Shown: positions 5,313 through 44,241 of the stretch, piece after piece
Numbering within the stretch: the first letter of the stretch is position 1
Layout of the letters: each line of letters begins with the position of its first letter
Assembly: GCA_000004985.1 (NCBI GenBank)
Contig: GG738853.1
From: Naegleria gruberi
Lineage: Eukaryota
Length of the DNA stretch: 64,000 nt
Reading direction: 5' to 3' (one strand)
The notes under the pieces: generated by a model
Databases searched by the model: none
Seen by the model: the letters and a program-made list of their open reading frames with translations, nothing else
What the model was told of the DNA's origin: nothing
Program-made: the position numbers and the translations under genes

Positions 5313-5322
5313 TTCCCGCCAT
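5313..5322 (+). promoter_or_regulatory. TTCCCGCCAT motif (E2F-like) about 35 bp upstream of the lin9 start codon
   Basis: A GC-rich decamer in roughly 90% AT DNA; the same decamer recurs at 8381 and 14318. Confidence 0.3.
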
Positions 5323-5353
5323 CCCGCAACCAAACTTTTGAAAAAATAAAAAA

Positions 5354-8300
5354 ATGCAAACAAACGAAGGCTCGGGATCAGAAATGTCTTCTTCCTCATC
5401 ATCAACATCATCCGCTGCCCAACAACAACTGCAGCAACAAGAACAACAATATAACGAACAAGGTGAAGATTTTCCTTCTCTTTTTATTCGTGCTGCTTCC
5501 TTCTCCTCTTCATCAGAGTCTGACGACATAATTCCTAATCATCAACAACATACCACCCAACCAATCAAAACATATGAATCCAAGATTAATTATGAACATC
5601 AAATGGTAATTGATAATGAAGAATCGGAATTAAACTTATCGCCAAGGAGAAGTTCTAGAAAGAAAACGCCAAAAAAACAATTCAGTCCAACCCACAAAGA
5701 GCAATCTGATAAAAAAACTACACCTTCTAAAATACAGATTCCACCATCACCAATACAATCACAAGTTATTCAACATGATTATCCATTTGGAGAACCTTGG
5801 ACACAAGAAGAACTTTCAACTTTTTTAGAAGGGTTCAACAAGTATAAAACTGATTGGGGTATGATCAAACCACTTTTACCAAGTAGAAGTGTTTCTATGA
5901 TTAATTCACTTTACGAAACTCACAAAAGATTTATTGAAGCAGACTGTGGTTTAGATGTGAAAAAATTACAATTTCATGATATTCACTTGGATTACATATC
6001 ATTCAAACAACAACAAATGATTCCATCTCCTCAACCACAACAATTCCAACAACTTCCACCACAACCTATTCCACCAAGAGCAAAGAATTCTGCTAGAAAA
6101 CGTTTGCAAGATGAATTTGATGCCATCTCATCACCTAAGAAGAAAGGTTCACCAAGACAACGTTTTTCAAAAACCTCTAAAATAATACCTACCACCAGTA
6201 ATTCAAATACCCTAATTCCAAACTTTAAAAGAAAACAAAAAATAATAATGGAACAATTACCACTTGAAGTAATTGAATCATTCCAATCAGATTCAGATAC
6301 TGTAACATTAACAAGCTCTCAAAGTTCTCTTTCTGTTTCAAATACTGAAAGTCAACCAACTTCACCACCTCCACCACAATCCCTTCAATCTCCATTATCA
6401 CCAACAAGTGATCTTTCCTCTTTCACAGCAGCTATTGGAATGTTATCACCTGATAGTAAAAAGAATTATGAAAAGAACAAAATGTTACCAATCAAACTAA
6501 GAAAGAAGGGTACTCACGGTAATCCTTTGCTAAAATATATTCAAATTGCTAATGGAGATCAAAATGATACAGAATTGTTAGAATCAGCTCAAAATGCTGG
6601 AATGAAAATTGTAAAAATACTATCAAGAAAGAAAACAAGAACATTTTGCTCAAGTGAATGGTTTTACCCAACGATAGACTTTGGATTTTTCGAAAAGAAT
6701 GAATTTTTGGAATGCTTATCTTGCTTGGATGAACCATATAGAAATAGAAAATCCTTTAAAAAATCAGAACTTAAAGGTTTAAGAGCAGAAATGTGTAAAA
6801 AGTTTGGTAAACCAAGAAGATTTTCTCAAGCTTATTTAAAACAAGAAAGAGCCAAGCTGGAAATGAATAGAAGTTTTGCTAGAGAATACTATCAAAAGTT
6901 TAAACAAGTATATCAACTCTCTCAAGATAATCAACCATTTGTTCCTCCTCCAGTCATTATGGACTACCCACTTGTATCTGAACTTCAATTTATTGAAAGA
7001 TTGGCTGCTCCATTTAAAAAGAACGATCAAGTTTTGGTTTTAAATCCAGAAACCCAACATGTACAACTTGCTACAATAATGGATGATATTCCTCATTCAA
7101 AAACAGATTATAGAGTTAAATTTTTATACACTAAAGAGGAACGTATAGTCCAAGATACAGAAATTATGCAATTAGGAACTGTTTCAGTATTACCAGTTCA
7201 AAGAAGAGTACCAGAAATGTTCAGACCTGTCATTCAAGATGGAATTCTCCCACCACAAACTCCACCAAGAAAAAGCAATTATAGTTTCCTCTCAGGTGAT
7301 AATAATTTGAACAATAGTATGTTATCTGCATCCTCACCACATTCCCCATTCTTTTCGAATAATCATCCAATTTTCCAAAGTCCTCCGTCATCAGCCAATG
7401 ATATTCATGATAATGGGGCTTCATTACAAACCCCAACAAAGAAACAAAAACTGGATGGTGGGTTAATGTCACCAAGTAATATATTTGCAAGTCCAAATAT
7501 GGAGAGTCATGAATTTTCTAATCCATTATCCTCTCCACAACACGGATTTGCTCAAAATCAACCACCTCCAGTTATGGCTACTGGTATTGTTGATCTTTCA
7601 AATCCATCTCAAGAAGTTGTTAGAAATATTTCCAAATGCATATTTTTATTAAGAAAGAAACATGAACACATGGTATTATTTAAAAATTTGAATGAAAAGG
7701 CGAGACATGCCATGATGAAACACTCTTTAGCTATGGCCTCATCTAATACATCAGAAGAAGGATCAAGCTCTTCTGTGACTCCAATAATATTTCAAAAATC
7801 ATTCTGTATTGAATATACCAAATTGGTACTTGATTTGAGTAAGATTAATAATGAATTGGAAGTTTTATTACCTCAAGTTAGAAGCTACAGTTCAACTCCA
7901 AATTATGCAACAACTAATTATCCTATCCATAGTATTTTTTCTCAATCAATCACAAAACAATCAACTTTCCTTTTCCAAAAACAAACAAATGGACCAGCAA
8001 GACAACAAATGTGTCAAGATATATTTGAGTCAAATAGAAATCATGCTAAAGATATTGTAAATTGTGTAATGGCTCAATTATTAACACAACTTCCATCCAC
8101 TACCTCTGAAAATGGTAAAACACTTTCATCAAATGTTATACAAACATGTCATGGAAAGATTGGAGATTGTATTGCTTTACTATTGCATTTAAGAGCTTGT
8201 AGTATTAATCTTGGTATTTTAGAAAATAATGATATTGATCTAATGCTTGATGCTGGTTTAATGGCATTGAAAGAACCAAATCAATCTGATGAAATATCTC

Positions 8301-8356
8301 AATATATTACTTTCATCAAGGATACTTTCTTGAGGACAAGAAATGATGAACAATAA
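5354..8356 (+). CDS. lin9: LIN9/ALY-type DIRP-domain protein (MuvB/DREAM complex subunit homolog) with an N-terminal Myb/SANT-like domain; 1000 aa
   Basis: The DIRP core SEWFYPTIDFGFFEKNEFLECLSCLDEPYRNRKSFKKSELKGLRAEMCKKFGKPRRFSQAYLKQERAKL aligns to human LIN9 EWFYSNID...GKPRRCSSAF..EER. The N-terminal WTQEELSTFLEGFNKYKTDWGMI is SANT-like, as in plant ALY proteins. Single long ORF. Confidence 0.7.
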   Translation: MQTNEGSGSEMSSSSSSTSSAAQQQLQQQEQQYNEQGEDFPSLFIRAASFSSSSESDDIIPNHQQHTTQPIKTYESKINYEHQMVIDNEESELNLSPRRSSRKKTPKKQFSPTHKEQSDKKTTPSKIQIPPSPIQSQVIQHDYPFGEPWTQEELSTFLEGFNKYKTDWGMIKPLLPSRSVSMINSLYETHKRFIEADCGLDVKKLQFHDIHLDYISFKQQQMIPSPQPQQFQQLPPQPIPPRAKNSARKRLQDEFDAISSPKKKGSPRQRFSKTSKIIPTTSNSNTLIPNFKRKQKIIMEQLPLEVIESFQSDSDTVTLTSSQSSLSVSNTESQPTSPPPPQSLQSPLSPTSDLSSFTAAIGMLSPDSKKNYEKNKMLPIKLRKKGTHGNPLLKYIQIANGDQNDTELLESAQNAGMKIVKILSRKKTRTFCSSEWFYPTIDFGFFEKNEFLECLSCLDEPYRNRKSFKKSELKGLRAEMCKKFGKPRRFSQAYLKQERAKLEMNRSFAREYYQKFKQVYQLSQDNQPFVPPPVIMDYPLVSELQFIERLAAPFKKNDQVLVLNPETQHVQLATIMDDIPHSKTDYRVKFLYTKEERIVQDTEIMQLGTVSVLPVQRRVPEMFRPVIQDGILPPQTPPRKSNYSFLSGDNNLNNSMLSASSPHSPFFSNNHPIFQSPPSSANDIHDNGASLQTPTKKQKLDGGLMSPSNIFASPNMESHEFSNPLSSPQHGFAQNQPPPVMATGIVDLSNPSQEVVRNISKCIFLLRKKHEHMVLFKNLNEKARHAMMKHSLAMASSNTSEEGSSSSVTPIIFQKSFCIEYTKLVLDLSKINNELEVLLPQVRSYSSTPNYATTNYPIHSIFSQSITKQSTFLFQKQTNGPARQQMCQDIFESNRNHAKDIVNCVMAQLLTQLPSTTSENGKTLSSNVIQTCHGKIGDCIALLLHLRACSINLGILENNDIDLMLDAGLMALKEPNQSDEISQYITFIKDTFLRTRNDEQ

Positions 8357-8380
8357 AAATTTGATGTCTTTTTAATTCTC

Positions 8381-8390
8381 TTCCCGCCAT
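8381..8390 (+). promoter_or_regulatory. TTCCCGCCAT motif about 80 bp upstream of the 8472 gene
   Basis: Identical decamer to the ones at 5313 and 14318. Confidence 0.3.
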
Positions 8391-8471
8391 TTTAAAAAAT
8401 AACTGTTTTCTAAATTACAACTTTCAGCGCCAAAATTTTAATTTAGCTTTAAAAAAAAATTAAGGGTCTGA

Positions 8472-10607
8472 ATGTCATCATCATCTTCGTCAAGTAGAGA
8501 AGGGAAAATTAAGAAAAGCCTTCCACCTAAGATACACCAATCTCCAAATAGCAGCAGCAGTAGCAGTAGCAGCTATGGTAGTGATGATAGTTTTACTACA
8601 AATTCATCACTAGTAACTTCTAGTTTGGCTGCAGATTCGGAAGAAATTAATTATGCTGCTAATACATCAACAAGTCATTTGACAACAACACACCGTTCCG
8701 GAAGTGGATCTGATTCTGATTCTGAATTTCTACCATCTTCAAAACCACAAATTCCACCTTCAAATAAGAATATTTTCAATCCACCTTCATCAATATCATC
8801 TGAAAAACCACCTTTACATTATGTTCATAAGCATTACCATCACTATACTGATACAAGCCAAAATTCAAAATTATCTGGAGCTTCACAATCCTTGAGATCA
8901 TCTGTTTCCACCTCAACTAGTTCTTCCTCAAAGATTCATCAAACAAATATTGATAGTATATCCTCATCATCTCTTTCTTCTTCTTCAAGGAGAATGGGAC
9001 AAGGAGTAGCGCCACCATCTTCAACTTTATCAAGTACAATTCTTACAAATACCACGGCTGCCTCGCCACCAATGCAACACGACAGTAAAGCTATTTTGTC
9101 TGCTCTTCAGTCACTGCAAGAAAAGATCAAAACATTGCAAACAAGAGTTGATGAATTGGAAAGAGAAAAAGTTGAACAAAGGCATAGATATGAACAGGAA
9201 CTGTTTTCACTCAAAATGAAGTTAGAAAGTGAAAGAGATTCCTACAAGGAACAATTGGATATCACTCGTACTGAATGTAAAAGATATAGTGATAAATTGA
9301 CTGAAACTGAAAAGGAGCTAACTCAATGTAAAGATTCTAGAAGAGAAATCAGTACCAATAATAGTAAATCTCAACAGAGAACTCTTGAGCTTGAAAGAAA
9401 ATCCAATACACTTGAAACAGAATTGCTAGATCTTAAAGAAAATCACTCTAGGTTGAATAATCTTTATGAACAATCTTTGAATAAGATTGAAGAACTCCAA
9501 TCTAATTTGGTTAAATATCATAGAAGAAAGGAGAGATTAGAAGTTGAAAAGAAAGAGCTTGATACTGCTCTTAAGGAAATGATTGACCTTCACCAACAAT
9601 TTGTTAATCAAACACTAGGAGAACAAACTACTCAAAACCATATGTCTTCATCTCAACACATTCATCATCAACAACAACAATATGTTTCAAATAATCATCA
9701 CAATCATGTCCATAATTCAAACACTATCAAATCATCTCCTATGGTTCAACAACCAGCTATAATACCACAACAAACAATAAGCCCACCACCTAGATCATCC
9801 TCCCCAACAATGGATAAGAAAAAGAAGAAGTTAGCAAGCTTGGCACGTCCTAAATCTGCTGGTGTTCTCCAACCAACAATAAGCTCTTCAAGAAAGAAAA
9901 GAAGAGAACAAACTTCTAAGAGAATGACAGCTGTTCACTACTCAACCAATCAAATTCCTGTGAGTAGTTCCGCCCAACAACAACTACAACAACCATATGT
10001 TAATCAATCTGCTACAAATATAATTTCTAAGCTTTCCTTAAATAAGAACCTTCATGAGAGACTTAAAAAGTCCAATAACAATACTGCACCACCTTTCTTG
10101 CCTAATAGCTTTAACAGCAATTCTAGGACCTTCCACGCTGCAGGACAAGCTCAGAATCTTCTAAGCACAACAGTTGGAATTGGTAAAAAAGAATCCACAA
10201 ATTATTACGGAGCCAACGAACACGCTCAGGACAGAGAGCATATTCAAGTTCTGAGAGAGGTTGATGCATTCAACAGTGGTGAAGAAATAAGGGATTGTAT
10301 CGCTCAACTCGAAGAAGAATATTTACAATCTCAGGAACAGTACAAGCTCTACTTGAGTAAGCTGTCTGAACCAGAAGTGAATATTGATTTTGTCAAGGAA
10401 CAACTCAAATATTTGACAGAGTCAATGGATAGAAAGAATAAGCAACTGAATACTTTGAAGACTTATCATTTGAGTGTTTGCGAAAGAATTCGAGATGCAA
10501 CATCACCACCAAAAATTAGGGGTAGTGAAAAGAGAGTTCAAGCTCTTCGATTGTTTAATGACTTGAGAAAATTACAACAGCAAGGAACTGTTGCAAATCA
10601 CTGCTAG
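8472..10607 (+). CDS. Ser-rich coiled-coil protein, 711 aa, function unknown
   Basis: Single ORF with poly-Ser N-terminus, a central heptad-rich segment (LQEKIKTLQTRVDELEREKVEQRHRYEQELFSLKMKLESERD...) and Dictyostelium codon usage. Confidence 0.55.
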   Translation: MSSSSSSSREGKIKKSLPPKIHQSPNSSSSSSSSYGSDDSFTTNSSLVTSSLAADSEEINYAANTSTSHLTTTHRSGSGSDSDSEFLPSSKPQIPPSNKNIFNPPSSISSEKPPLHYVHKHYHHYTDTSQNSKLSGASQSLRSSVSTSTSSSSKIHQTNIDSISSSSLSSSSRRMGQGVAPPSSTLSSTILTNTTAASPPMQHDSKAILSALQSLQEKIKTLQTRVDELEREKVEQRHRYEQELFSLKMKLESERDSYKEQLDITRTECKRYSDKLTETEKELTQCKDSRREISTNNSKSQQRTLELERKSNTLETELLDLKENHSRLNNLYEQSLNKIEELQSNLVKYHRRKERLEVEKKELDTALKEMIDLHQQFVNQTLGEQTTQNHMSSSQHIHHQQQQYVSNNHHNHVHNSNTIKSSPMVQQPAIIPQQTISPPPRSSSPTMDKKKKKLASLARPKSAGVLQPTISSSRKKRREQTSKRMTAVHYSTNQIPVSSSAQQQLQQPYVNQSATNIISKLSLNKNLHERLKKSNNNTAPPFLPNSFNSNSRTFHAAGQAQNLLSTTVGIGKKESTNYYGANEHAQDREHIQVLREVDAFNSGEEIRDCIAQLEEEYLQSQEQYKLYLSKLSEPEVNIDFVKEQLKYLTESMDRKNKQLNTLKTYHLSVCERIRDATSPPKIRGSEKRVQALRLFNDLRKLQQQGTVANHC

Positions 10608-10723
10608 TCAATGTATATCATCTATCAATGTTCAAGAGAGAACTTTAAATAAAGAAAGCATTTAAAAATTTACAACCTTGTAAATATTTCAATGGTTATC
10701 AAGTCTTCTATGCATTCAAGTAT

Positions 10724-10764
10724 AGATGTAAAAACGTTCAGCAGCTGCTAACGTTTTTACATCT
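10724..10764. repeat. Perfect 15-bp-stem hairpin (agatgtaaaaacgtt / aacgtttttacatct) with a palindromic loop cagcagctgct, about 120 bp downstream of the 8472 gene stop
   Basis: Read directly; stem arms are exact reverse complements. Confidence 0.6.
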
Positions 10765-11110
10765 GTGTTGTATCTCCCATCCTTCTCTCTCACTATTATC
10801 TAATATCTGAAAAGGACATCAAAAGAGTCATTTTTGGCTCCTAGCCTTAGTTTTATTTAAAAAAATAGCTCTACTACAGCATCAGCAGGTTTTTTTGAGC
10901 ACCAGCTACAACAAACTAGTACAAAACCTTCCTAACTTTCTCTAACTCTAAATTGTACAAAGTATGTAATATTATTAATTTAATAGTAGTGATTGTAATG
11001 ATTATCTTTATATTCCGTTATTTAAATAATTTTGCACTTCATCTTTTTCATCATCATTAATACAACAACAATAATAATAACAATAACAACAATAATAACA
11101 AAACAATAGA

Positions 11111-12299
11111 ATGTCTACTCCGACAATGACAGCAGAGTTTGACGATAGTCATTTAACTACGTTTAAATTTGGACAGTCTGATGCTCATATGCATGACTCA
11201 CTCGATCCTTCCCAATGGAAAATAACAGATTTTGAATTGTTAGAAATTATTGGTACTGGTACTTTTGGTAGTGTTAGATTAGTTAAACATAAACATACAC
11301 AACAATACTATGCTATGAAAATTATTAAAAAGTATGATGTAATTAGAATGAAACAAGTAGAACATATCATTAGTGAGAAGAATATTCTCTCTCAAGTTGA
11401 TCATCCTTTCATTGTTAGACTTTATAGAACATTCCAAGATGAAAATTATTTATTCATGATTATGGAATATGTGTGCGGAGGTGAATTGTTTTCACATTTG
11501 AGACGTGTTGGTAAATTCCCTAATGATGTTGCAAAGTTTTATGCTGCTGAAATTATTTTAGCTATGGAATATCTTCATATGAAGAATATTGTTTATCGTG
11601 ATTTGAAACCAGAAAATGTTTTATTAGATAATGATGGTCATGTAAAAATTACTGATTTTGGTTTTGCTAAGAAGGTTCTTGACCGTACGTGGACTTTATG
11701 TGGTACTCCTGAATATTTAGCGTAGGTTTTTATTAATCTCTTAATATTTAAATTACTCTTTAATCTCTTAATCATAATGATAATACTCTTAATCATTCTG
11801 ATAATCTAAATCATCTAATTATTTTATTATGAATAGTCCTGAAATTATTCAATCTAAGGGTCATGGTAAAGCTGTTGACTGGTGGGCATTAGGTATTCTT
11901 ATTTATGAAATGTTAGTTGGTTATCCACCATTCTTTGATGATTCACCTTTCAAAATTTATGAAAAGATTTTACAAGGAAAGGTTGAATTTCCAAGATTTA
12001 TGGATCCAATGGCTCGTGATTTAATTAAACGTCTCTTAACTACAGATAAGATGAAACGTTTGGGTAATTTGAAAGGAGGTGCTGCTGATATTAAGGAACA
12101 CAAATGGTTTAAGGGTGTTGATTGGGATGAATTATATAATAGACAAATTGCATCTCCAATTCCTGTCAAGATTAGTTTTGCAGGTGATTCTAGATACTTT
12201 GAAACTTATCCGGAATCTCAAGATCATTGTATTCACCACACTGGTACTCCACATCAACAATTATCTGCTGATGTTCAAGCTCTATTTGATGGTTTTTAA
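11111..12299 (+). CDS. AGC-family Ser/Thr kinase closest to the PKA catalytic subunit / PRKX. Exons are 11111..11721 and 11837..12299.
   Basis: [11 protein letters not shown]...[37 protein letters not shown]|[39 protein letters not shown] and C-terminal FETYPE. A GTAGGT donor at 11722 and an aatAG acceptor at 11836 rejoin the frame as GCT Ala. Alignment to human PRKX is close throughout. Confidence 0.85.
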
Positions 12300-13977
12300 T
12301 TTTTATTAAATGTATGTGAGAATACTGTATATACATCAAATAAAGTTATACATATTGTCACTGTACTTTTACTAAACAAGGTTTTAAACACTTGTTTCCA
12401 TTCATTTGTAAATAATGATTGAATAGTTTTCAAATCAATAACAATGTCAATAAAACACCAAAATCTAATCCATTCACAACCCCAATCTAATTCAATTGGA
12501 ATTCTAATGACTTGTTCCCTTGTTAATGATGGTGGTGAGGTTGGTGATGGTGATTCATCATGATTTTTATCATTATTCATTGTTTCATCTCCATTTGTTG
12601 TAGCAGTAGTAGTTGAATCATTTCCATTCACCGTCATTGTATCATCATTATTTTCATTATAATAAGAATTATCAAATTCAATTGACCATCTAGATCTAAA
12701 ACCAATACTAAATAAATATAATTGTTCATAAAATTTTGAAGTCATGTAATAAAATAGAGTATTATAAAATTTTCCATACGATTGAAATAAACCTCCAACA
12801 GAATGTTCAGCAGTTGCAACTTGTAAATCAATGAAATAACGTAAAATTTTAGAAATTTGAACAAGAATATTTCTACACTTGTTAATTAAATGAATAATTC
12901 TATTCAATTTTGATAAATAATTCATATTATTAGAATTTTTATAATTATTTAAAATTCTCAATTCAGGTAAAAGTTCATTATCTAAAATAGGAGGTGGTGG
13001 TAATTCAACTTTAGAAAAAACTTCTTGTTGATCATAATATTCTTTCCATTTTTGTAAAAATACTTGTTGTGAATTTTCTGAAAAAGGAGTCCATAATAAA
13101 CCTCTTTTTGTTAAAGAAATATTAAAATCATTTAATAAATTTGATCTAATTTGTAAACTATATCCTTTTATAGAAGTAGAAATTCCATAAATTAATTTTT
13201 TAAAATTATGAAAATTCATAATTGATAAACTTAAATATAAATATCTTGCTAAATAAGGAATATAAAATTTTCTTCTTAACATTAATTTAGTAATAAAATC
13301 TTTAATTTTCATTTGATATCCAAAATTAGTAGATAATTTATATTTACCAAAAATAAAACCAATATAATTAATTAAAATTAAATATAATTTTGATTTTTCA
13401 TTAAAAGGTTTATGTAAATGTAATTTAAATATACCATATATATATTTCATATCTAAATATTTAAATAATTTTTTAAAATAATTTTTAAAATAATTTATAT
13501 TTTTTTCATTTAATTTAATTTTATATTTAAATGTTTCTCTATTTGTATAATTTTCATTTCCAATATTAGAATTAAATGTATTATAAAAGGAAGTATATTG
13601 ATTATATTCTTCTTCTTGTTCTCTTTGCATTTCTTCAATATCATCATCTTGATAATAAATATTATTTCCATCTTTGGTAATATTATATATATCATAATGA
13701 TATTCACTTCCAATTGAATATCCTATTTTTTTATCTAATTGAATAAAACTTTATATATTTTATAATAATATTTAAAAATTATATTTAATTAATATTAAAA
13801 TTATATTTAATTAATATTATATTTAAATTAAAAAAAAACATACTTTATAGGTATTTGTAAATTATGAGTAGGATAACATCTCATTGAAATATCAAATGTA
13901 GCATATTCTAAATCCCATGGATGTGTATCTTCATAAGAATCCCAATTTAATGATGCATTTAATTTATATATTTCCAT
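12296..13977 (-). CDS. Hypothetical protein of about 529 aa. Exons on the minus strand are 13977..13844 and 13748..12296.
   Basis: ATG at 13977 (MEIYKLNASLNWDSYEDTHPWDLEYATFDISMRCYPTHNLQIPI), GTATGT donor, 95-nt AT-rich intron, taaAG acceptor, then the long ORF. The stop codon overlaps the stop codon of the convergent kinase gene. Confidence 0.5.
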
Positions 13978-14317
13978 TTTTTAATATTATTATTAATATT
14001 AATATATTATTATATTATTATTAGTATGTTATCAATTAGTTATATTGTTGAATTATGTTATTATATTGTTTGTTACATGAATTCCGAGAGTATGATCATT
14101 ATTTGTTGTTGTTGTTGTTGTTGTTGTAAATATAACAATAGAAGTGATGTTATTTTTTTCACGTATTAATGAAGGCTTGTTTCTAATTCAACATTATTAT
14201 CATCATAATAAAGTTTCAATGAATAATTTAAAGAAGAAATAAACATTGGAATTCAAATGTCCAAGTCTAGACTTGAGAATAATTGAATGGCCATTAGAAA
14301 GAATTTTCATGACATTA

Positions 14318-14327
14318 TTCCCGCCAT
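14318..14327 (+). promoter_or_regulatory. TTCCCGCCAT motif about 85 bp upstream of the RIIa-domain gene
   Basis: Third identical copy of the decamer. Confidence 0.3.
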
Positions 14328-14411
14328 AAATTAAATCTACAGTTGTTTTATTCAAATATTAAAAAAAAAGTGTAAATAATTGAGGAGGGAAATTTTAAGA
14401 AAATAATAATA

Positions 14412-14539
14412 ATGGACAATCAAGTGTTGTATTCAGCAGAACAAATTCAAATTCCCAATGATTTAGGAGAAGTTCTTAAACAATATACAAAGGATGCTAT
14501 CAGAGCCTCACCAGCTGATTTGATCCGATGGAGTGCAAA
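14412..14539 (+). CDS. First exon of a small RIIa (PKA regulatory-subunit dimerisation/docking-like) domain protein; the 3' structure is unresolved
   Basis: MDNQVLYSAEQIQIPNDLGEVLKQYTKDAIRASPADLIRWSA followed by a GTAAGT donor at 14540. Compare the RIIa consensus IPxGLxELLxxYTxEVLRxxPxDLxxFAxxYF. Candidate acceptors at about 14570 or 14617 give different short tails. Confidence 0.45.
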
Positions 14540-14880
14540 GTAAGTATTATTATTCCATATAATCAATAATTTAGCCTTCCTTACATGAAACAGTTATTTT
14601 GCAACCAAGACTAATAAACCACTTCCATTCCCTAATGTTCCTCTCACTAACACTACCCCTACTAGTACTACTGCTCAAAGTAAATAATAGAAATATTAAT
14701 AGCAAAATGACGTTTGTTGCCAACTCACACAATGTAAATATCTCGAAAACATCTTCCTAATAATATATCATTGCCCAACAATGCATATTGTTCAATACAG
14801 CAAATAACTGTAATTGTCTTGCAAAACACGTATTGGTGATTTCATCATTCAATTTGAAAATAAAAATAGCAAACAAAAAA

Positions 14881-16453
14881 ATGAAAATATTTAAACTTTT
14901 AATTGTATTATTATTTTTGATTTCATCAATAGTACTTGTTGCTAATTGTTCAGATGCTACTTCAACTGCTGGTAGTGAAAATATAGAAATTAAAAGTAAA
15001 TTAAATGATCAACAAAATACATATACACAAGATTCATTATTGGGAAATGGTATTTTAACTGGAATTAAAAAGGATGGAACAATTGATAGTATTATTGCTC
15101 AATATAAACAATTAGATAATGAATATATTAAATCTAATAATATTGATAATGGTGATGAAAAGAAGGAAGATATTACAATTGAAAATCCATCAGTAACAAC
15201 TCCTACAACACCTACTACTACACCAACAACAACAACACCACCTATTGATATTACAACACCATCATTACCTAGTACTGTTAATAATCCAATTGATGAAAAA
15301 CCAAAAGATATTGAATTGCCACCATTGGAAGAAAAGAAATCATCAACTGAATCATCAAAACCAACAGTTGATACTCCAACAACAACAACAAAAACAACAA
15401 CAACTACTACTACAACTCCATTACAAGATAAACCTGGAAAGGAAGAAGAATCAGCTGCTGAACAAAAATTGAGAGAAGAAATTAGTAAACTTAAGGCTAA
15501 ACTTGAAGAAATTCAAAAGAAGGAACAAGAAAAGTCAACACCAACAGCACCAATTGAAAAACAAAATAAGCCTATTACAATTGAAAATCCATCACCAGTA
15601 ATAACTCCTACAACAACAACAACTCAACCAAAGGCTGAAAAATCAATTGAAACTACTAAACCATCTACAACTACTACTACTACACCTTCTAAACCATCTA
15701 CAACTACAACTACAACTATTCCATCTAAAATTGATAATAAGAGTAGTACTCCAAGTAAACAGACAACATCATCTACTACTAGTAAAACATCGACAACAAC
15801 AACAACTCCTAATACTACTACTAACAAATCAACAACAACAACTACACCAACAAACAAACAATCATCATCTACTACTAGTAGCAGTTCATCATCAACAAGT
15901 AAATCATCTTCCAAATCAAAGAATAAGTCTACAACAAGTAGTACAACAAGTAAGAATAAGACTAAACCATCAAGTACTTCTCCAACTACCAACAACAAAC
16001 AATCATCATCTGCTAGTACTACTTCTACAACTCCGACAACAAAAACTCCAACAACAACAACAACTCCAAGTAACAAACAATCATACTACCACTGGTTCTA
16101 CTACTACTACTTCCAATACTAATAAACCAAGTAGTACTACTTCTACAACAACAACTCCAAGTAACAAACAACCAATTCAACCTAATAAGAATACAGTTGT
16201 ACGTCCAACACTTAAAGAAGAAGAAGAAAAGAATAATGGAATATCACAAGTATTTATATTTGGATTTGGTATAATTCTATTTTTAGTAATTATTGCAATT
16301 TTCTTTTTATTTATGAGAAAGAGAAAACCAACATTAAAATATGAACCAGTTTCACAATATGAAAATGATTCAATTCAAAATAATGATAATTCCATTGTTG
16401 AATTAGATGATAAACATAAAGTAATTAATGAACCTGTTGATTTGGAAATTTAA
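14881..16453 (+). CDS. Mucin-like Thr/Ser/Pro-rich type I membrane glycoprotein, with an apparent frame break in the repeat region
   Basis: Signal peptide MKIFKLLIVLLFLISSIVLVANCS, long TTTPTT/SSS repeats and a coiled KLREEISKLKAKLEEIQKKEQEK segment. The TM anchor ISQVFIFGFGIILFLVIIAIFFLFMRKRKP and tail are in a different frame (ORF 15647-16453). Both frames are open across 15647-16122. Confidence 0.55.
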
Positions 16454-27059: not shown

Positions 27060-29939
27060 TTATAAATCTTCTTCTTCAAGAGGATCTGAATGTTTATGTT
27101 CTGTTGTTGTGGTATTGTGATTAGAATGTTCAAGACTTGAATCATTCTTTTCCTCATTATCATTATGAGGTGGTTGTTCAATGGTAATATCTTGATGTTT
27201 TGTATCCTCAGCCTTAACAATGTGATGTTCCTTCTTTGTATCATCAATTTCATGAACATCATTGAGAGGACTATCATCTCTATTAGTTTTAATAATTTTA
27301 TAATTCTCTTCATATTGAATAATATTTAAACCAGTTTGTTGATGAACATGTTCCAACACTAAAGGTAAAGTTAATTGAGTTGATTTTGTTAAATCTTGCA
27401 TTGTTAAATGATTGGATTGAATTTGTTTCTTAATTAATTCAGTTTCTTCAGGTTTAAAATCAAATAATAAATTAAATAGAGGCATTACAATAAATTCAAT
27501 AAAACCAGTTTGACATTTTGGTACATTTTGAGTATTTCTATCCATAAAAGGTGAAATATCAATTTTTAAATTTCTTTCAGTATCACCCTGATTATAAAAT
27601 TCAGTCATTACTCTATTAACCCATTTACCATAAACTTGATATGATTTTGTTGGATTTGAAACATCTGCACATTTAATTATTACTTTTAATAAGGCTAATA
27701 AACATTCCTTTCTTTCAATACTAAACTTTTCCTTATTAAATATATCATTGGATTTAATTTGACCAACAATTAAGAAATGTTGACTTATATCTGTTGCTAA
27801 TATCATTTCAACTATTAATTCTCTTAAATATTCATATTGATTACTTGACATATTTACAAATATATTAAATTCTTCCTTTCCTAGTATTTTAAATAAATTA
27901 TAACAATGAAAATTTTCTAAAATTGAACGATCATTAAACATGATTGCCTTTTCACTTCTTGTTTTCTTTTCAAATAAATTTGTAACTCCTGGATGACAAA
28001 CATCATGAGCTAAACATGCAACAACTAATGCTAATATATCTAATGGTACTAGATTGAAATTTAAATTATTTTCTAATGTAAAATTATTAAATTGAATAGA
28101 TTGAGATGATTGTGACTGTGATTGTGTTGATTGTGATTGAGATTGAGGTGAATGAGGTGAAGATGGACTTGTATGTGAAAAACATTTAACATATAAACTA
28201 ATAGCAGTTTGAACAACATCAGTTGCATGACAATTATTATGATATGGATTATTAAAATAATTAGATTCTACTTGTTTTAAGAATTTCTTCAAAGTACCAA
28301 TTGGTATATTCAATGGTCCAATTAAATCAAATGTTTGAAATATATATAAACATGTATAATATAATGGTTCACCTTCTGCAATCTTATTAAATTCAAATAC
28401 ATCAAATTTAAAATAATCCAATAAATTTTCTTTTAAATATTCCTTAACTTTCAATGGAATATCATCCTTAGGTACAATTGCTAATGAATCTTTGGCACTC
28501 TTTCTACCTATTGAACTCATTTCTTTTAAATAATTTGTAAATACTAATGCTTTAGTATATGCCTTAATACGTTTCTTCCATGATAAATCTGTACTATCTT
28601 CAACAAGTGATCCATGTAATACTTCAGATGATAACCATTTTTGTGTTTCAGAATCATGTTCATCTGATATTAAAATATCTTTAACAGTTGATTTAACTCC
28701 CATATTATGTGATGATGCTTTTGATACTAATAAACTTGCTAATGGTGATTTTGTTGAATTGGTGGCTGTTGGATCTGTTAAAATTAATTCAATTCTTGAA
28801 ACTAATTGTCTCACTTCATCATTTTCATGAGCTTTTAAAGAAGATATCAATTCAGTTAAATTACTACTAGTAGCACCACCTTTAGAATGATGATCATTAG
28901 ATACACTTGCTGTTATTGGTTGTGATGGTGGAGCTAAATCTTCTGGTGTAATTGGAGTATGTGGATCATCTTCAATTTTCTTAATATCATCACCCAGAAA
29001 TCCATCCTCTTCTTCATTAACATCTTGATTTGATGATCTTTGAGAAGATAAATGTAAAACTTCAACAGTTAAATTCTTTTCAGATTCTTGTTTTAATTTT
29101 AATTCCAAACTATGTTGTCTTTCTAAATCATCCTTCTTTTCAGAATCAAATTTTTGTTTCTGCAATTTTGAATATTTTGTAATCATCATAAAAGTATCTC
29201 TAATGTTAATATCAATATTATGTTTTAGAGGATATAAATGTAATGCAATTGTAATAACTTTTCCAACATCATTTTTCAATTTTTGGAAAACTTCAATTGA
29301 TTCATCTGGTTGAGGTTCAATTGTTAATTCTGAATTAAGAACACAATTTTGAACTGATAGAATAAATAAAGATAATTGTTCCTTTTCATTCGATGGACTA
29401 TCTTCAAATACCATAAATTTATCTTGATGAATACTTTCAGCATCTCTAATATGATAATAAAACTTATCTAAACCATCAGATAGAGAATAAATAACAATAT
29501 TCTTATCTACATTTGAAAATACACAAAACATAAAATCACTCTCCATTAATTGATGAGTGTTATAAGCAATTACCTCATCCATTCTATATAATACTCTCAT
29601 TAAATCTGTTTCCTTATCTTGATGTAAATCTTTACATGTTATATATCTTAGTGATTTTCCTTTTGGTATTTCAACTATAACAGAAGATTCAAAGGCTTCA
29701 TTGGATGAAGTGGTATCTTCCTTCTTTTCTTCTGCTTCATCCTTTATATTTGAAATTGGTTGAACAAGTGTAGATTGTGCTTTTTCATCCCTTGTTGATC
29801 GTTCTTGATGTGCTATTGTTGTAGTTGCTGATTTCCCCACATCTTGTGGTACATCATTGTCTTTATAACGATCATGACTATTTTGCTGAGGTTGAACACT
29901 ATTTGTTGTTGCACATCCAGCTGCATTACCCATTTTCAA
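27060..29939 (-). CDS. Class I 3',5'-cyclic-nucleotide phosphodiesterase with a roughly 480-aa N-terminal region; probable start is MGNAAGC (Gly2 myristoylation-type)
   Basis: YHNNCHATDVVQ and HDVCHPGVTNLF metal-binding signatures (HNxxH, HDxxH), with a catalytic helical core in the C-terminal half; single ORF. Confidence 0.75.
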   Translation of the reverse strand: MKMGNAAGCATTNSVQPQQNSHDRYKDNDVPQDVGKSATTTIAHQERSTRDEKAQSTLVQPISNIKDEAEEKKEDTTSSNEAFESSVIVEIPKGKSLRYITCKDLHQDKETDLMRVLYRMDEVIAYNTHQLMESDFMFCVFSNVDKNIVIYSLSDGLDKFYYHIRDAESIHQDKFMVFEDSPSNEKEQLSLFILSVQNCVLNSELTIEPQPDESIEVFQKLKNDVGKVITIALHLYPLKHNIDINIRDTFMMITKYSKLQKQKFDSEKKDDLERQHSLELKLKQESEKNLTVEVLHLSSQRSSNQDVNEEEDGFLGDDIKKIEDDPHTPITPEDLAPPSQPITASVSNDHHSKGGATSSNLTELISSLKAHENDEVRQLVSRIELILTDPTATNSTKSPLASLLVSKASSHNMGVKSTVKDILISDEHDSETQKWLSSEVLHGSLVEDSTDLSWKKRIKAYTKALVFTNYLKEMSSIGRKSAKDSLAIVPKDDIPLKVKEYLKENLLDYFKFDVFEFNKIAEGEPLYYTCLYIFQTFDLIGPLNIPIGTLKKFLKQVESNYFNNPYHNNCHATDVVQTAISLYVKCFSHTSPSSPHSPQSQSQSTQSQSQSSQSIQFNNFTLENNLNFNLVPLDILALVVACLAHDVCHPGVTNLFEKKTRSEKAIMFNDRSILENFHCYNLFKILGKEEFNIFVNMSSNQYEYLRELIVEMILATDISQHFLIVGQIKSNDIFNKEKFSIERKECLLALLKVIIKCADVSNPTKSYQVYGKWVNRVMTEFYNQGDTERNLKIDISPFMDRNTQNVPKCQTGFIEFIVMPLFNLLFDFKPEETELIKKQIQSNHLTMQDLTKSTQLTLPLVLEHVHQQTGLNIIQYEENYKIIKTNRDDSPLNDVHEIDDTKKEHHIVKAEDTKHQDITIEQPPHNDNEEKNDSSLEHSNHNTTTTEHKHSDPLEEEDL

Positions 29940-30107: not shown

Positions 30108-30118
30108 GGGCGGGAAAA
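30108..30118 (-). promoter_or_regulatory. TTTCCCGCCC (E2F-consensus-like) element about 170 bp upstream of the PDE gene in gene orientation
   Basis: The plus strand reads gggcgggaaaa inside AT-rich intergenic DNA. Confidence 0.25.
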
Positions 30119-30635: not shown

Positions 30636-33243
30636 ATGATCAAAATATTAAATCCTCTATTACTATGCCTATTAATATTATTATTTCTAATTAATAATAT
30701 TAAATGTGCATCATTTACAACAAGTTATTCAATGAAAACATGTTCATTATCAAATTCATTATTATCCAATTCTAATAGTGATATATTTACATCTACATCT
30801 ACTACATCATCTGGATGTTCCTCATCATCAACATTTCAAATTGCCATTAAATTTGGAGATGAAGGAGTTCCACGTGATTTAAAACTCTCACTCTCAAAAG
30901 ATGATAAAATTCAAAATAGTTTAGATTCAACTGATTTTTATTCATTATCTAATGATATTATTATTAAAATAGAAAGAACTGATTTAAAAGTATCATATCC
31001 ATTAACTTTTATTAAAACATTAAAAAATTCATATGAAACTATTGAAACAAGTGTTAAAGATTGTAATAATTTAAATAATAATAATATGGATGAATATTCT
31101 AAATGTTGTGGACCCTATTATTATAATGATAATTCAAATTCAAATTTAAATTCAAATAAATATTATAATATTAGAAAATTAAATTATAATACTACCAATT
31201 ATAATCAATATGAAATTGGAAAATCACAATTACAATATTATATTCAATTTACAATACAACAATTAGATTTAAAATATAGTTTAATGTTATCAAATAATCA
31301 AAAATCATTAATTTTTAAAGGAATTAAAATTTCAATTGAAAATGATTTTTTAAAATTAACAAATTTAGATTTTTATTATTTAACACATTATTATATTATA
31401 CCTGAAAATCAATTAGATGGTTTTGTAATTCCTAAAAATTTAATTAATAAAGATATAAATAAAATTGGAATTACTAAAGAAATTTATAAAAATAATATTA
31501 ATTGTAATGATGAATTAGGTGATATAGTTACCATATTAGGAAATAATAATATATATGATCAATTTTATAGTTTTAGATCTAAATTTTTATTAAATTTAAT
31601 TGATGATTGTTATTTTAAAGATAAAAATCAAAATTTAATTAATTTTAATTGTGTAAAAACTATTAAAAATACAATTTTAATTAATTTACCATTTGGAGAT
31701 TCAAATTCATTTTCATTATTAAAATTAAAATCAAATCCAAATATAGTATCAAAAGGTTCTTTTAAAATTGATAATTATTTAATTTCTATTTATTTAGATA
31801 TTTTTAATAATATTGAATCTGATGGTTTAGTTGAAATTACTTTAATTGATTGTTGTATTTTACAAAATAATAATTTTATTTGTAATGTATGTTTTTTTAT
31901 TAATATATTTTTAATTTAATTATTTTTATATTTTATTTAATATTTTTATTTAATTATTAAATATAGAAAACATCAAGTCAATTTACTCAAAAAAGAATAT
32001 CAGGATATGATGTTAGTAAATTTATATTTAATACTAATTTAAATGTAAGTATTCATTAATTATTCAAAAATGATTCAAAAATAATTTATATAATAATTGT
32101 TATGATAATATTACATGATAATAATTTAATTAATATTATTTAATAATAATTTAATCTAATAATTAATATAAATAGATAAATTCAGGTAAATGTATATTTA
32201 ATATAGGTGATAATGGACAAGTATTATTTGAAGAAATTGTAACATTTCAATATCAATCCAATGATAATTCTAATAATAATAATAATAATATAATAATACC
32301 AATATCTAAAGATGAATCACAATGTAATATAATACCAACATCACCAACATCATCTTTATCTAATAGTAATATTAATAGTGTATTTAAATTAAATATAAAA
32401 ACTATAATTGAAAATAATAAAATTAAATGTGAATATGATTGTAATAATATAGATTTAGAATTTGATTATAATGAATATATATGTAAACCAATTAATTGTT
32501 CATCTAAATATTTAGATAAAATTATATTTAATTATAATTTATTAAAATGTGAAATACCAATACAATGTAATCAATTTACACAAATTTATAATTTACAAAA
32601 TAATACATGTATAAATATAGTAAATAATATATATAGTAATGATATATTAAATAGTATTGAAAATATTAATTTTAAAAATATTGAATGTAATAATGGTATT
32701 TTAAATAATTATTTTACATGTATTTGTAATGAAAATTATATTTCCTATTGGAATGATTCAATTTTAAATTTACAATTTTGTAAAATTAATTTATTATTAG
32801 AAAATAATTTACAAAATTTAAATATTAATACAATTTTAGATTATATTTTACAATTAGATTCATATATTCAAATTATTTTAATTATTATTTTATTTTTATT
32901 AATTTTAATTATTTTATTTTTATTTACTTTTACTTGTACTTGTTCATGTTATAAAAAATTAAATAGAAATTATTTTAATAAAATTAAATATGGTAAATTA
33001 GAAAAGAAATCTATTTTTAAATTATTATTTACTATTATATTTCAATGTGATTTTACAACAAGTGAATTTAATTTATCAGAAAAACATTTTAAAAAAATTA
33101 AAAAATTAAAATTAAAATATTTAAATAATAATAATATTGATAATATTGTTGATAACACATTAAATAATGATATTATTAGTAATAATAATAATAGTAATGA
33201 TAATGATATTAAATGTAATAATAATAATAATAATAACAATTGA
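30636..33243 (+). CDS. Cys-rich type I membrane protein with EGF-like modules. Exons are 30636..31886, 31967..32044 (optional, in-frame) and 32176..33243.
   Basis: Signal peptide MIKILNPLLLCLLILLFLINNIKCASF; GTATGT and GTAAGT donors; aatAG acceptors. Exon 3 was checked codon by codon to the TGA at 33241. It carries CEYDCNNIDLEFDYNEYICKPINC and CNNGILNNYFTCICNENY patterns, the TM segment IILIIILFLLILIILFLFTF and a poly-Asn tail. Confidence 0.6.
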
Positions 33244-33878
33244 TAATAATGGTGGTAATCAACAAGTGTCAACAAATAACATCAATAATTGTCATTCTCA
33301 TCGTAATCATATTGTTTATAAACATCATACAATTAATGATGGTGATGATGATAACACTCAATCATTTAAACAATTTGAAAAACAAGCCTTCAATTATAAA
33401 AAGGCTAGGAAATAAAATCTTTTTTAAAATCATTTTGACTGAAGTTTACAATGTTATTATTTTGACAAGATATTATTAATGTTCGTTGTCATTATGCAAA
33501 TTATGAAGTTTAATTGTTGTATTGTACCTTTCAATAATAATGTATGCATTTAATATTCCCTCTATTATTTACAGGAGGTAATGACAATGATTAACTAATG
33601 GATAATGAAGGTGTTATTGTTGTCAAGTCGGACCATTTTGAAAAAGAGAATTGAAAGTATCAACATCCATCTTGTCTCTTCGTCACACCACAACAAACAA
33701 CAAAAACTAATTGAAGGCTTTGGTTTACGTTGTGTGGTGTGTGAATTTTGCTGTGTGATGATGACTTGTTGTGCGTGTGGGCGCAGAAGCCGGAACAAAA
33801 ATAGCGGGAAGTGGTTGTAAATAAAGAGGTTGTAACGAAGGAGAAGGGTTGACTCTCCAAAAAAAAAACCTCGAAAAA

Positions 33879-42329: not shown

Positions 42330-43703
42330 TTAATTTCCTAATATTGTTGGTGATGATGATGGTAAATATAATTCAGGATAACAATTATTCATTCTCGCTC
42401 TCAATAATTCAATTGAATAGTTAAGTGAAAATCCATTTTGATAAATTGCTTGTAAAATCATTTCCTCTGAAATTCTATTTGATGGAATGTAACCTACTAC
42501 ATACTTTAATACGAATCCATTTCTCTTAATAGCTTCAAGAATAAACTCTTCATTAGTTCTCAATTTAGATTCAGTGAAGACTAATGCTCTTCCACTTAGA
42601 CTGAGTGCAGTTAGTGCAATTTCTAAATCCAATTTAAATTCAGTATTTGCAACACAACTTATCATTAAACCATCTCCTTGAACAGCTTTCAAAGCTAATT
42701 CTCTATCAGTCTTACGTAATTGAGATGAAACCCATTCATAAGCATATGGAGTTTTAGTGACAGCTGTCATTGCTATTTCTCTATCATTTTGTAATTCTGT
42801 TGATGCCTCAGAAAGAGCTGACCCTGTTTGTTGAATTGCTGCCATTACAACTTGTTTATCATTTTTCAATCTTTTAGAAGCAAATCTTAAAGCAAAAGGT
42901 TCTCCTCTGTTGATTGCCATTAATATCAAATCCTTATCATCCATTAATTTCAATGCAAATGGTGAAATAATTTCAAGAGTTTTATATGCATTCTTATTGA
43001 TTGCTTCCATTATAACATCTCTATCCTTCTTAAATTGATTACTTAAATAGGAAAGTGTTTTTACATTTCTGGAAACAACTTTTAAAACCATTGATTTTTC
43101 CTTTTTAAATTTTTTAGGTGCTTTTTGGATAACAACTGCATTTGATTCAATTGCTTTCAATATCATTTCATCATCATTACATTTCTTATAATTAATTTCC
43201 GGTTGAGTTTTGTCGATTTTTGAATTTTTAATTTCTAAATATCTTTCTAATAGAATTGGATCTTTAAATATAGAATAATTATATGATAAATAATTAACTT
43301 CAATTGCTTTGAATATGAATTCTCTATCATTTCTCAATGAATAACTTGCTTGTTCAAGTAAATAAGGACACTCTCTAATAAATTGTAACATTAAATTCGA
43401 ATCTCCATTAACATTCTCTAATGAATCGGCGATTGAATATTTTTTATGAATTATTACTTTAATCCAATAAAATTCCTTATCACCCATAAATTCAATCGGA
43501 GTAAATTCATCATTTTTAGAAAATTCCCATCGATTGGTTAAATATTTCATTTTGTAAAATTGTTGATTCCTAAATTTACATTTCAACAATTCAAGTAATT
43601 GCTCCAAAGATGATGAAACAATGGTATGATTATTCGAATCATCATGATCACTACTATATTGAATATTAACGTCAGAGAAATTTGGTTTCATTTTTTTTAA
43701 CAT
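42330..43703 (-). CDS. DUF4116-repeat protein, 457 aa
   Basis: Tandem repeats of about 36 aa of the type D(R/K)E(I/L)xL.A(I/V)..NG.aL.Y....L; paralogous to the gene at 50890. Confidence 0.55.
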   Translation of the reverse strand: MLKKMKPNFSDVNIQYSSDHDDSNNHTIVSSSLEQLLELLKCKFRNQQFYKMKYLTNRWEFSKNDEFTPIEFMGDKEFYWIKVIIHKKYSIADSLENVNGDSNLMLQFIRECPYLLEQASYSLRNDREFIFKAIEVNYLSYNYSIFKDPILLERYLEIKNSKIDKTQPEINYKKCNDDEMILKAIESNAVVIQKAPKKFKKEKSMVLKVVSRNVKTLSYLSNQFKKDRDVIMEAINKNAYKTLEIISPFALKLMDDKDLILMAINRGEPFALRFASKRLKNDKQVVMAAIQQTGSALSEASTELQNDREIAMTAVTKTPYAYEWVSSQLRKTDRELALKAVQGDGLMISCVANTEFKLDLEIALTALSLSGRALVFTESKLRTNEEFILEAIKRNGFVLKYVVGYIPSNRISEEMILQAIYQNGFSLNYSIELLRARMNNCYPELYLPSSSPTILGN

Positions 43704-44241
43704 CCAGATTTCTAATTCCTTCTTACTATTATTATGCTAACAAAATCACGAGATGAAAAACAATGAAAATTAGTTTTCCATTTCCTACATTGGAAGGTTA
43801 GCTGGTCAATCAAGATAAATGCAGAGAATGATTAGTCAAAGAATGAGTTGCCAAACCATGGTTTGTTTATTGAATGTTATTTTGTAATATGTGAAATAGG
43901 TTAAATTGTAAAATCATGCAGTAATGTGTTCATTTGGAGCATGTTAAACAACTATTTACCTCTTCTGAATTGTTTCAGGAGTATATTCCAGTGCAATGGA
44001 ATTCATGGGATTTCAAATTCAATTTTTGGCAATCAATTAAATGACTAGATTTGGAGGTATGGAATAATACATCCTTTGAGTGCGTACATTCATACACCAC
44101 TCAATACATGCTATTTATCCTCATCCCTATTAAATAACATGTAACGGTAACATTTTCATAAAGAAGAAGAAATTTTGGAGGGAAATAAAATCACTATAAA
44201 ATTGAACGACTATGTGAATTATATGAAAAAAACAATTGAAA

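Follow-up and report, generated by a model that had tools for sequence, protein, structure and literature searches.

Predicted promoter-proximal E2F-class sites before a subset of genes in the amoeboflagellate Naegleria gruberi

The stretch of DNA analyzed here (hereafter the window) comprises 64 kb of Naegleria gruberi, scaffold_9:288001-352000, as placed by the coordinates of the RNR2 gene jgi_31365 in Data S2 of Kennard et al. (bioRxiv 10.1101/2024.01.08.573270), which is also the source of the expression values for RNR2 and MCM3 given below. Along this stretch lie a LIN9/ALY-type gene, a CEP57-family coiled-coil gene, a gene for a small RIIa protein, a class I cyclic-nucleotide phosphodiesterase (PDE) gene, a mitochondrial-type ATP synthase subunit gene, RNR2 and MCM3. 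The element with which we are concerned is a GC-rich decamer, TTCCCGCCAT, located a short distance before the start codons of the first three of these genes. This decamer and its relatives constitute an E2F-class motif that occurs far above chance expectation, is concentrated before start codons and persists in orthologous promoters. A first-pass annotation of the same DNA had framed its predictions in terms of rblA, thereby implying Dictyostelium as the source organism; this framing does not hold, as proteins of the window are 100% identical to N. gruberi entries, including the LIN9 open reading frame (ORF) and the PDE and RNR2 ORFs, which have the same sequences as EFC47848 and EFC47709, respectively.

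The decamer is present in exactly three copies in the window, all on the plus strand, and a search of the window confirmed the first-pass claim that each copy lies in gene orientation close upstream of an ATG. The accompanying claim that such a recurrence is very unlikely to arise by chance is likewise supported, as only about 0.002 copies are expected in the approximately 15 kb of noncoding DNA given the local noncoding composition, and no copy appeared in 100 dinucleotide-preserving shuffles of the window. A chance origin of the copies can thus be excluded. The 8-mer core of the element, TTCCCGCC, is found four times against an expectation of 0.08, the fourth of these being a minus-strand copy at 30109-30116 (plus-strand GGGCGGGAAAA from 30108), upstream of the PDE gene. 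In the form GGCGGGAA/TTCCCGCC it is the sole recurrent CpG-containing GC-rich octamer of the window outside coding repeats; the remaining recurrent GC-rich octamers are Gly/Pro-type coding repeats. The promoters in question had been described as roughly 90% AT, and while they do carry the motif, the four intergenic regions are in fact 72-79% AT. The 45-60 nucleotides (nt) flanking the three decamers on either side have nothing in common, and for this reason we regard the decamer as a short autonomous motif rather than a part of a repeat family, and reject the idea that the copies are a dispersed repeat or a transposon end.

In animals and plants the core TTCCCGCC is a typical E2F site, the consensus of which is TTTSSCGC, with TTTCCCGCC as the plant form. 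All the sites described here match TTSSCGC, which bears out the E2F-type assignment made in the first-pass annotation, and the full TTTSSCGC is found at 30110 and 8427. The decamer itself agrees with the palindromic full site TTCCCGCCAA at 9 of 10 positions (E2F palindrome TTTCCCGCCAAA). In addition to the sites recognized at first, we identified an octamer GCGCCAAA in the promoter of the CEP57-family gene, a CCCGCAA half-site adjoining the first decamer and a GCGGGAA before the ATP synthase gene (Table 1). The position of such sites relative to genes was assessed in a pooled set of 203 kb with 103 called promoters, which consists of the window and eight fetched heterolobosean loci. Of 28 TTSSCGC sites in this set, 12 are situated within 200 nt 5' of start codons, a zone that accounts for 9.4% of the sequence (binomial P=3.6e-6), consistent with the predicted enrichment near start codons; 11 of the 103 promoters contain such a site. 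E2F-class sites therefore mark a subset of genes and do so in a promoter-proximal position. We consider it very likely that the sites are functional cis-elements, and we predict, with rather less assurance but as the probable reading, that TTCCCGCCAT and its relatives (TTTCCCGCC, GCGCCAAA and GCGGGAA) are promoter-proximal sites bound by the E2F family of Naegleria.

Table 1. Genes, E2F-class sites and related elements of the window, with Myb-type elements of RNR2 promoters in other heteroloboseans
Feature	Position	Strand	Basis and remarks
LIN9/ALY-type gene	5354..8356	+	Single ORF, 1000 amino acids (aa); Pfam DIRP 1.3e-13, Myb 5e-6; orthologues P0002, P0003
CEP57-family coiled-coil gene	8472..10607	+	711 aa; weak Cep57_CLD_2 match
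RIIa-only protein, two-exon gene	14412-14539 + 14594-14687	+	73 aa; splice model fits 66-aa N. lovaniensis orthologue
Class I cyclic-nucleotide PDE gene	27060..29933	-	957 aa, N-terminal MG...; Pfam PDEase_I 3.4e-70; = EFC47848
Mitochondrial-type ATP synthase alpha/beta subunit gene	ATG 33879		Motif 68 nt upstream
RNR2 (jgi_31365)	44242-45258		In the window
MCM3	47122-49547	-	
Site 1, decamer TTCCCGCCAT	5313..5322	+	Exact match; motif end 31 nt before LIN9 ATG
Half-site CCCGCAA adjoining site 1	5323..5329	+	Read from sequence; putative function
TTTGAA, hexamer like the cell cycle genes homology region (CHR), between E2F-class site and LIN9 ATG	5337..5342	+	Lead only
Site 2 (distal), decamer TTCCCGCCAT	8381..8390	+	Motif end 81 nt before CEP57-like ATG
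Canonical E2F octamer GCGCCAAA (TTTGGCGC on minus strand), proximal site of promoter 2	8427..8434	+	Sequence match
Site 3, decamer TTCCCGCCAT	14318..14327	+	Motif end 84 nt before RIIa ATG; bidirectional promoter
Site 4, TTTTCCCGCCC (plus strand GGGCGGGAAAA), canonical TTTSSCGC site	30108..30118	-	175 nt upstream of PDE ATG (29933)
Weaker E2F-class heptamer GCGGGAA (gene strand AGCGGGAAG; GCGGGAAG)	33804..33810	-	68 nt before ATP synthase subunit ATG (33879)
TAACGGT (Myb/mitosis-specific activator (MSA)-type), contrast element outside the motif family	44142..44148	+	RNR2 promoter
AACGG-core elements, RNR2 promoters	44142-44148; L007 9850-9856 and nearby; L008 ~9900; L009 694-726; L010 ~9840-9930		

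The identities first proposed for the genes behind these sites (lin9, a coiled-coil gene, an RIIa gene and a PDE) stand and could be refined by domain and structure matches. Because it combines Myb and DIRP domains, the product of the first gene is identified by sequence as a LIN9/ALY-type subunit of the MuvB complex. The public model that covers it, EFC47702 / XP_002680446 (1574 aa, "DIRP domain-containing protein"; window 5384-10604), joins LIN9 to the CEP57-family gene by means of a predicted intron at 8114-8594, which deletes the conserved C-terminus of LIN9, its stop codon and the entire motif-bearing promoter of the second gene. In N. lovaniensis and N. fowleri LIN9 and the CEP57-like gene are two separate genes, and the fusion in EFC47702 is a wrongly predicted gene model. 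The match of the second protein to Cep57_CLD_2 is sub-threshold, as is that of its N. lovaniensis orthologue, and an exhaustive search recovered just 21 relatives. Eight of ten distant relatives scanned contain Cep57_CLD and/or Cep57_MT_bd domains in the matching N- and C-terminal positions, with two of these eight scoring above the Pfam curated cutoff. The RIIa protein, whose N. lovaniensis orthologue has 66 aa (L001 20587-20839), finds its best matches among solved structures (PDB) in ROPN1L (2e-12) and Chlamydomonas RSP11 (6.5e-10), and by this comparison resembles the N-terminus of ROPN1L / radial spoke protein 11. We did not find this gene in the public N. gruberi protein set, and exact look-ups of the ORF-derived LIN9, CEP57-like and RIIa proteins returned no match, as the public models differ or are missing. 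The analysis thus corrects one fused gene model in the public annotation and adds one unannotated gene.

The ORF at 14788-16122 had been considered as a source of further RIIa exons and was rejected as unrelated to the RIIa gene. Site 3 lies in a bidirectional promoter that also faces a divergent minus-strand gene (12296-13977, ATG near 13977), for which searches of PDB and NCBIfam yielded no identity; the same searches gave none for the plus-strand gene at 30636-33420. The latter, situated between the PDE and ATP synthase genes, is about 20% GC, encodes an Asn/Ile-rich protein to which no function could be assigned by match, and has a Willaertia orthologue in a 713-aa gene (L005 14937-17135). 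Elsewhere in the window, DUF4116 repeats make up nearly all of the genes at 42330-43703 (minus strand) and 50890-54087 (plus strand), with 7 and 22 copies, respectively; one of the two is divergent from RNR2.

N. gruberi encodes the cognate factors: NgruE2F, NgruDP, NgruDEL and NgruRB are all catalogued by Medina et al. 2016 (PMC4862756, supplement files 4 and 6). The DNA-binding domain of NgruE2F matches that of human E2F4 in the E2F4-DP2-DNA crystal structure 1CF7 with E=7e-25, and E2F4 and E2F5 are the nearest matches of its dimerization and marked-box region. NgruE2F and human E2F4 have the same recognition helix and NgruDP retains the RRRVYD motif, because of which the same DNA specificity is to be expected. 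NgruDEL possesses two E2F-type DNA-binding domains, as do the DP-independent repressors of the E2F7/8 type, and it could be argued that the decamer is read mainly by this protein, with a preference for the longer site TTCCCGCCAA(AA). The E2F7/8 preference for TTCCCGCCAAAA would agree with this, as would the extended TTCCCGCCA-W form that is seen in all three decamers and in several orthologous sites (TCCCGCCAA, CCCGCCAA). However, the decamer is joined or replaced in these same promoters by canonical short sites (GCGCCAAA, TTTGGCGC, TTGGCGCCAA), which fit E2F-DP at least equally well, and the second DNA-binding domain of NgruDEL displays RRLND rather than RRxYD. While the members of the family cannot be told apart by their sites at the sequence level, we consider a predominant role for DEL to be improbable.

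N. lovaniensis (L001) and N. fowleri (L002 and L003, two contigs of this species that are 99.7% identical) share with N. gruberi the gene order PFK, LIN9, CEP57-like, kinase, unknown gene and RIIa, allowing a direct comparison of orthologous promoters. The LIN9 promoter reads TTCCCGCCATCCCGCAA...TTTGAA...ATG in N. gruberi, CCGCCAAAAAGTGTTGGCGGGCG...TTTGAA...ATG in N. lovaniensis and GGCGCGCC...GTGCGGGAAGTTTGAA...ATG in N. fowleri, the E2F-class sites of the three species occupying corresponding positions. The CEP57-like promoter contains paired sites, one of the decamer type and the other of the GCGCCAAA type, in all three species: TTCCCGCCAT-N36-GCGCCAAA in N. gruberi, a distal CCGCCAT separated by N11 from a proximal CCGCCAAA in N. 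lovaniensis, and a distal CCCGCC separated by N20 from a proximal TTGGCGCCAA in N. fowleri. The latter two promoters also share a CAGCCGTTA block. The corresponding intergenic region before the RIIa gene of N. lovaniensis contains TCCCGCCAA, which stands 160 nt from the ATG. Beyond Naegleria, the ATP synthase promoter of Willaertia magna shows GCGGGAAG at a distance of 91 nt from the ATG and with its orientation unchanged (L005 14108-14114), and we interpret GCGGGAAG as a conserved E2F-like half-site of this metabolic gene. In sum, an E2F-class site is retained in three of three species at LIN9 and at the CEP57-like gene, and in two of two at the RIIa and ATP synthase genes. Apart from these elements and a generic A-run the orthologous promoters barely align, and approximately 27 kb of N. 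fowleri sequence encompassing 22 other genes lacks any E2F-class site. Use of the DnaJ/TPR gene as a syntenic anchor for the PDE and RNR2 promoters elsewhere failed, the synteny being rearranged in the other species.

A further counterpart outside Naegleria is the promoter of the small-subunit gene of RFC (recognized by its KPWIEKYRP box) in Willaertia magna, which reads TTCCCGCCAT-N14-TTTGGCGC-N12-ATG, with a decamer identical to that of N. gruberi and the two-site layout of promoter 2. RFC is a textbook E2F target. This RFC gene and a divergent 494-aa gene are just 33 nt apart (L008 17281-17323), and ATGGCGGGAA, which is the decamer in reverse complement, contains the ATG called for the latter, whose start may therefore be wrong. 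On the same contig TTCCCGCCAA and an opposite-strand TTCCCGC lie 60 nt apart in an Asn-rich stretch of a 473-aa ORF (15222-15288); these heptamers reflect either chance or a miscalled gene boundary.

As the orthologous sites keep their E2F class while their sequence and orientation change, they also help in weighing a suggestion made at the outset, namely that the CGCCAT core points to a factor of the YY1 type. In its general form this alternative states that an unrelated protein (a YY1-like or Sp/KLF-like C2H2 zinc finger, or a lineage-specific reader of CCGCCAT) binds the element and that the likeness to E2F sites is coincidental. CGCCAT is indeed the YY1 core, site 2 reads CCGCCATTTT, the GGGCGGG of site 4 resembles a GC box, the terminal AT is common to all three N. 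gruberi copies, and RNR2 and MCM3 (see below) are devoid of sites. Yet the GCCAT core is not invariant, being kept only in the three N. gruberi copies and one N. lovaniensis site. Orthologous sites read CCGCCAA or GGCGCCAA instead and, more generally, drop CCAT (CCGCCAA, CCCGCCTC, TTGGCGCCAA, GCGGGAAG) while remaining in the E2F class, and it is on this account that the YY1-type reading is disfavored. Moreover, the decamer is found together with canonical TTTGGCGC / GCGCCAAA sites, the flips of orientation between species are as expected of a pseudo-palindromic E2F site, and a YY1 or Sp/KLF orthologue in Naegleria was not demonstrated in this analysis. We accordingly regard an unrelated factor as highly improbable.

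Two further candidate elements were considered during the definition of the motif. Stretches of 6-10 A that immediately precede the ATG are found in about 13 of 22 genes (e.g. 49548-49575 and 33850-33878) and, being this generic, were rejected as a part of the motif; they may represent a core-promoter or leader signature of Naegleria. The MCM3 and ATP synthase leaders have AAAAAAACCTC(A/G)A in common, and an A-run together with TTGAGG is seen in RIIa promoters and in the CEP57-like promoters of other species. The second candidate, GGAGGGAAA, was dropped as a degenerate E2F variant, with two copies observed against 0.27 expected and its loss from orthologous RNR2 promoters; the copies, at 14384-14392 and 44177-44185, lie 25-65 nt before the RIIa and RNR2 ATGs and are probably due to chance.

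Several observations weigh against a probable E2F-family role at these sites, or at least against a simple form of it. RNR2 and MCM3 are classic E2F targets, RNR2 being a near-universal one. RNR2 is the most strongly cell-cycle-induced gene seen in this analysis, rising about 1000-fold (log2 fold change ~10, maximum +10.6) after release from a mitotic block, and its promoter is without an E2F-class site in all five heteroloboseans compared (N. gruberi, N. lovaniensis, Willaertia, a metagenomic heterolobosean and Acrasis kona). What these five promoters do carry are elements with an AACGG core of the Myb/MSA type (TAACGGT, AACCGTTA, CTAGCCGTTT). Along with the CAGCCGTTA block of the two CEP57-like promoters, they suggest a Myb-type system as the driver of at least some S/M-phase genes. 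The MCM3 promoter likewise has no E2F-class site in either of the two species inspected, N. gruberi and N. fowleri; MCM3 is not induced in mitotic synchrony, and in this respect its lack of a site is compatible with an E2F role. Two of the targets, a radial-spoke-type protein and a PDE, have no evident connection with the cell cycle, and the weaker site fronts an ATP synthase subunit gene. The target of site 3 is ambiguous given that the promoter is bidirectional. Finally, coding DNA of N. lovaniensis and N. fowleri is 82-95% identical, and since these are close sister species the footprinting amounts to about 2-3 independent lineages. As regards RNR2 itself, a second N. gruberi paralogue (P0027, 91% identity) is encoded on another scaffold, and the closest relatives outside Heterolobosea among the matches listed (~70-72% identity) include many from Bacteroidota.

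Among canonical targets, an E2F-class site is thus present at Willaertia RFC and at LIN9 and absent at RNR2 (5/5) and MCM3 (2/2). Of the cell-cycle regulatory module envisaged in the first-pass annotation, the E2F type and promoter-proximal position of the sites survive, whereas a straightforward module finds no support, with RNR2 and MCM3 in the very same window lacking the motif. Because of these two genes the sites have to be understood as marking a particular gene subset and not S-phase genes generally. In N. gruberi the genes so marked encode a MuvB subunit, a centriole protein, a PDE, a radial-spoke-type protein (unless its divergent neighbor is the one marked) and, with a weaker site, an ATP synthase subunit.

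The composition of this subset raises the possibility that the same factors serve the amoeba-to-flagellate differentiation of Naegleria, with its de novo centriole and flagellum assembly, instead of or besides the mitotic cycle, in which case an E2F4/5-like factor would turn on genes for centrioles and axonemes. A CEP57-family centriole protein and an RSP11/ROPN1L-like radial-spoke RIIa protein account for two of the four targets in N. gruberi, the S-phase genes RNR2 and MCM3 are without a site, and NgruE2F is most similar to E2F4 and E2F5. In Xenopus, E2f4/5-Dp1-Multicilin is bound to centriole-biogenesis genes and activates them while other cell-cycle genes are off (PMC4083089). RFX, FOXJ1 and XAP5 are absent from Naegleria, whose regulators of cilia genes are unknown (PMC12183034). 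On the other hand, the proposal is built on two genes, and for one of them the promoter is bidirectional. In other organisms the centrosomes of cycling cells likewise depend on CEP57 to function, the Willaertia decamer fronts the replication gene RFC, and LIN9 is a cell-cycle regulator. On balance such a role in differentiation appears possible though rather unlikely. A more elaborate scenario, which we hold to be decidedly doubtful, is that the E2F4/5-like factor acting through TTCCCGCC-type sites might be a part of a centriole/flagellum switch, with S-phase genes controlled through Myb/MSA-type AACGG elements, LIN9/MuvB at the junction of the two, and the link between E2F and centrioles, which is known from vertebrate multiciliated cells, being ancestral to eukaryotes instead of co-opted in vertebrates.

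Promoters in the N. gruberi genome are very short, and if, as we consider probable, the sites are bound by the E2F family, then they would act from 30-180 nt before the ATG. The binders would be the heterodimer E2F-DP and possibly DEL, a DP-independent protein of the E2F7/8 type, all of them winged-helix factors. By analogy with animals, plants and Dictyostelium, the RB pocket protein would hold bound E2F-DP inactive, possibly within a DREAM-like RB-E2F-DP-MuvB assembly, until CDK activity releases or activates E2F-DP and the small set of site-bearing genes is switched on together. As LIN9 is a core MuvB subunit, its presence among the targets makes plausible a feedback loop on the MuvB/DREAM complex itself. 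Physical binding, the sign of the regulation, its timing (cell cycle versus differentiation) and the involvement of RB/MuvB are all elements that we infer in this scheme.

A further lead comes from the LIN9 promoter. In promoters controlled through the cell cycle-dependent element (CDE) and the CHR by DREAM/MuvB, the CHR is TTTGAA, is bound by LIN54, and classically follows the CDE after a spacer of 4 nt. The LIN9 promoters of all three Naegleria species similarly display an E2F/CDE-like GC element and then a sense TTTGAA before the ATG, at most 40 nt from it, a condition seen in 12 of 103 promoters overall. The N. fowleri arrangement, GCGGGAAG-TTTGAA, resembles the 4-nt CDE-CHR spacing. Unlike in CDE/CHR promoters, however, the spacing varies in Naegleria (~3, 6 and 10 nt across the three species), the hexamer is present in 12% of all promoters of this AT-rich genome, and two of the three species are sisters. 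We therefore offer it as a lead towards a DREAM-type module and not as a demonstration of one.

A comparison with known systems places the Naegleria sites close to the E2F/DP sites of animals and plants (TTTSSCGC; plant TTTCCCGCC; E2F4 chromatin immunoprecipitation motif GGGCGGGAA), with which they share the core, the position at gene starts and the frequent pairing. The presence of sites at RFC (in Willaertia) and LIN9, and of genes for E2F, DP, DEL and RB, adds to this likeness. They differ in the setting, Naegleria being a discoban amoeboflagellate, in the lack of sites at RNR2 and MCM3, and in a local form that ends in CCAT or CCAA. In Dictyostelium discoideum lin9 belongs, together with lin54 and DP, to the cell-cycle-regulated set repressed by RblA (Rb), and S-phase and mitotic genes are expressed together with no clear G1; that study reported no promoter motif analysis (PMC3386910). 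lin9, a candidate target in Naegleria, is common to both sets of genes, but in Dictyostelium, which belongs to another supergroup, rnrB and mcm genes are RblA-repressed, whereas RNR2 and MCM3 of Naegleria have no site.

The E2F4/5-DP1-Multicilin (EDM) program of vertebrate multiciliated cells offers another parallel in that E2F consensus sites are found at promoters of centriole-biogenesis genes, and the genes bound by EDM are activated outside the normal cell cycle (PMC4083089). On the Naegleria side the likeness consists of the sites at the CEP57-family and axonemal RIIa genes, the formation of centrioles de novo and the E2F4/5-like nature of NgruE2F; in contrast to the EDM program, just two such genes are seen. 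Finally, E2F1 of Giardia lamblia is described as an encystation-induced activator of cyst-wall protein genes, with sites beside AT-rich initiators (summarized in PMC7866390). It provides a precedent for an "excavate" protist E2F that drives differentiation, although Giardia is a metamonad and the targets and motif details differ.

We found no report in the literature of E2F elements in Naegleria promoters. E2F sites themselves rank with the best-documented cis-elements of eukaryotes, and what is new here is the prediction of conserved E2F-class sites in a discoban. The origin of the E2F-DP-RB system is traced to the last eukaryotic common ancestor, but its cis-elements have, to our knowledge, hardly been studied outside animals, plants and a handful of further organisms. 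If the sites are conserved in Heterolobosea (Discoba), the E2F recognition code and its promoter-proximal use would be equally ancient. For work on Naegleria they offer a handle in the form of a 10-bp element, three factors (E2F, DP and DEL) and a short list of candidate targets. With a centriole protein and an axonemal protein among these targets, the motif in addition furnishes a cheap and testable hypothesis for the regulators of the rapid de novo assembly of centrioles and flagella, and the finding would gain in interest if this connection to the centriole and flagellum proves to be true.

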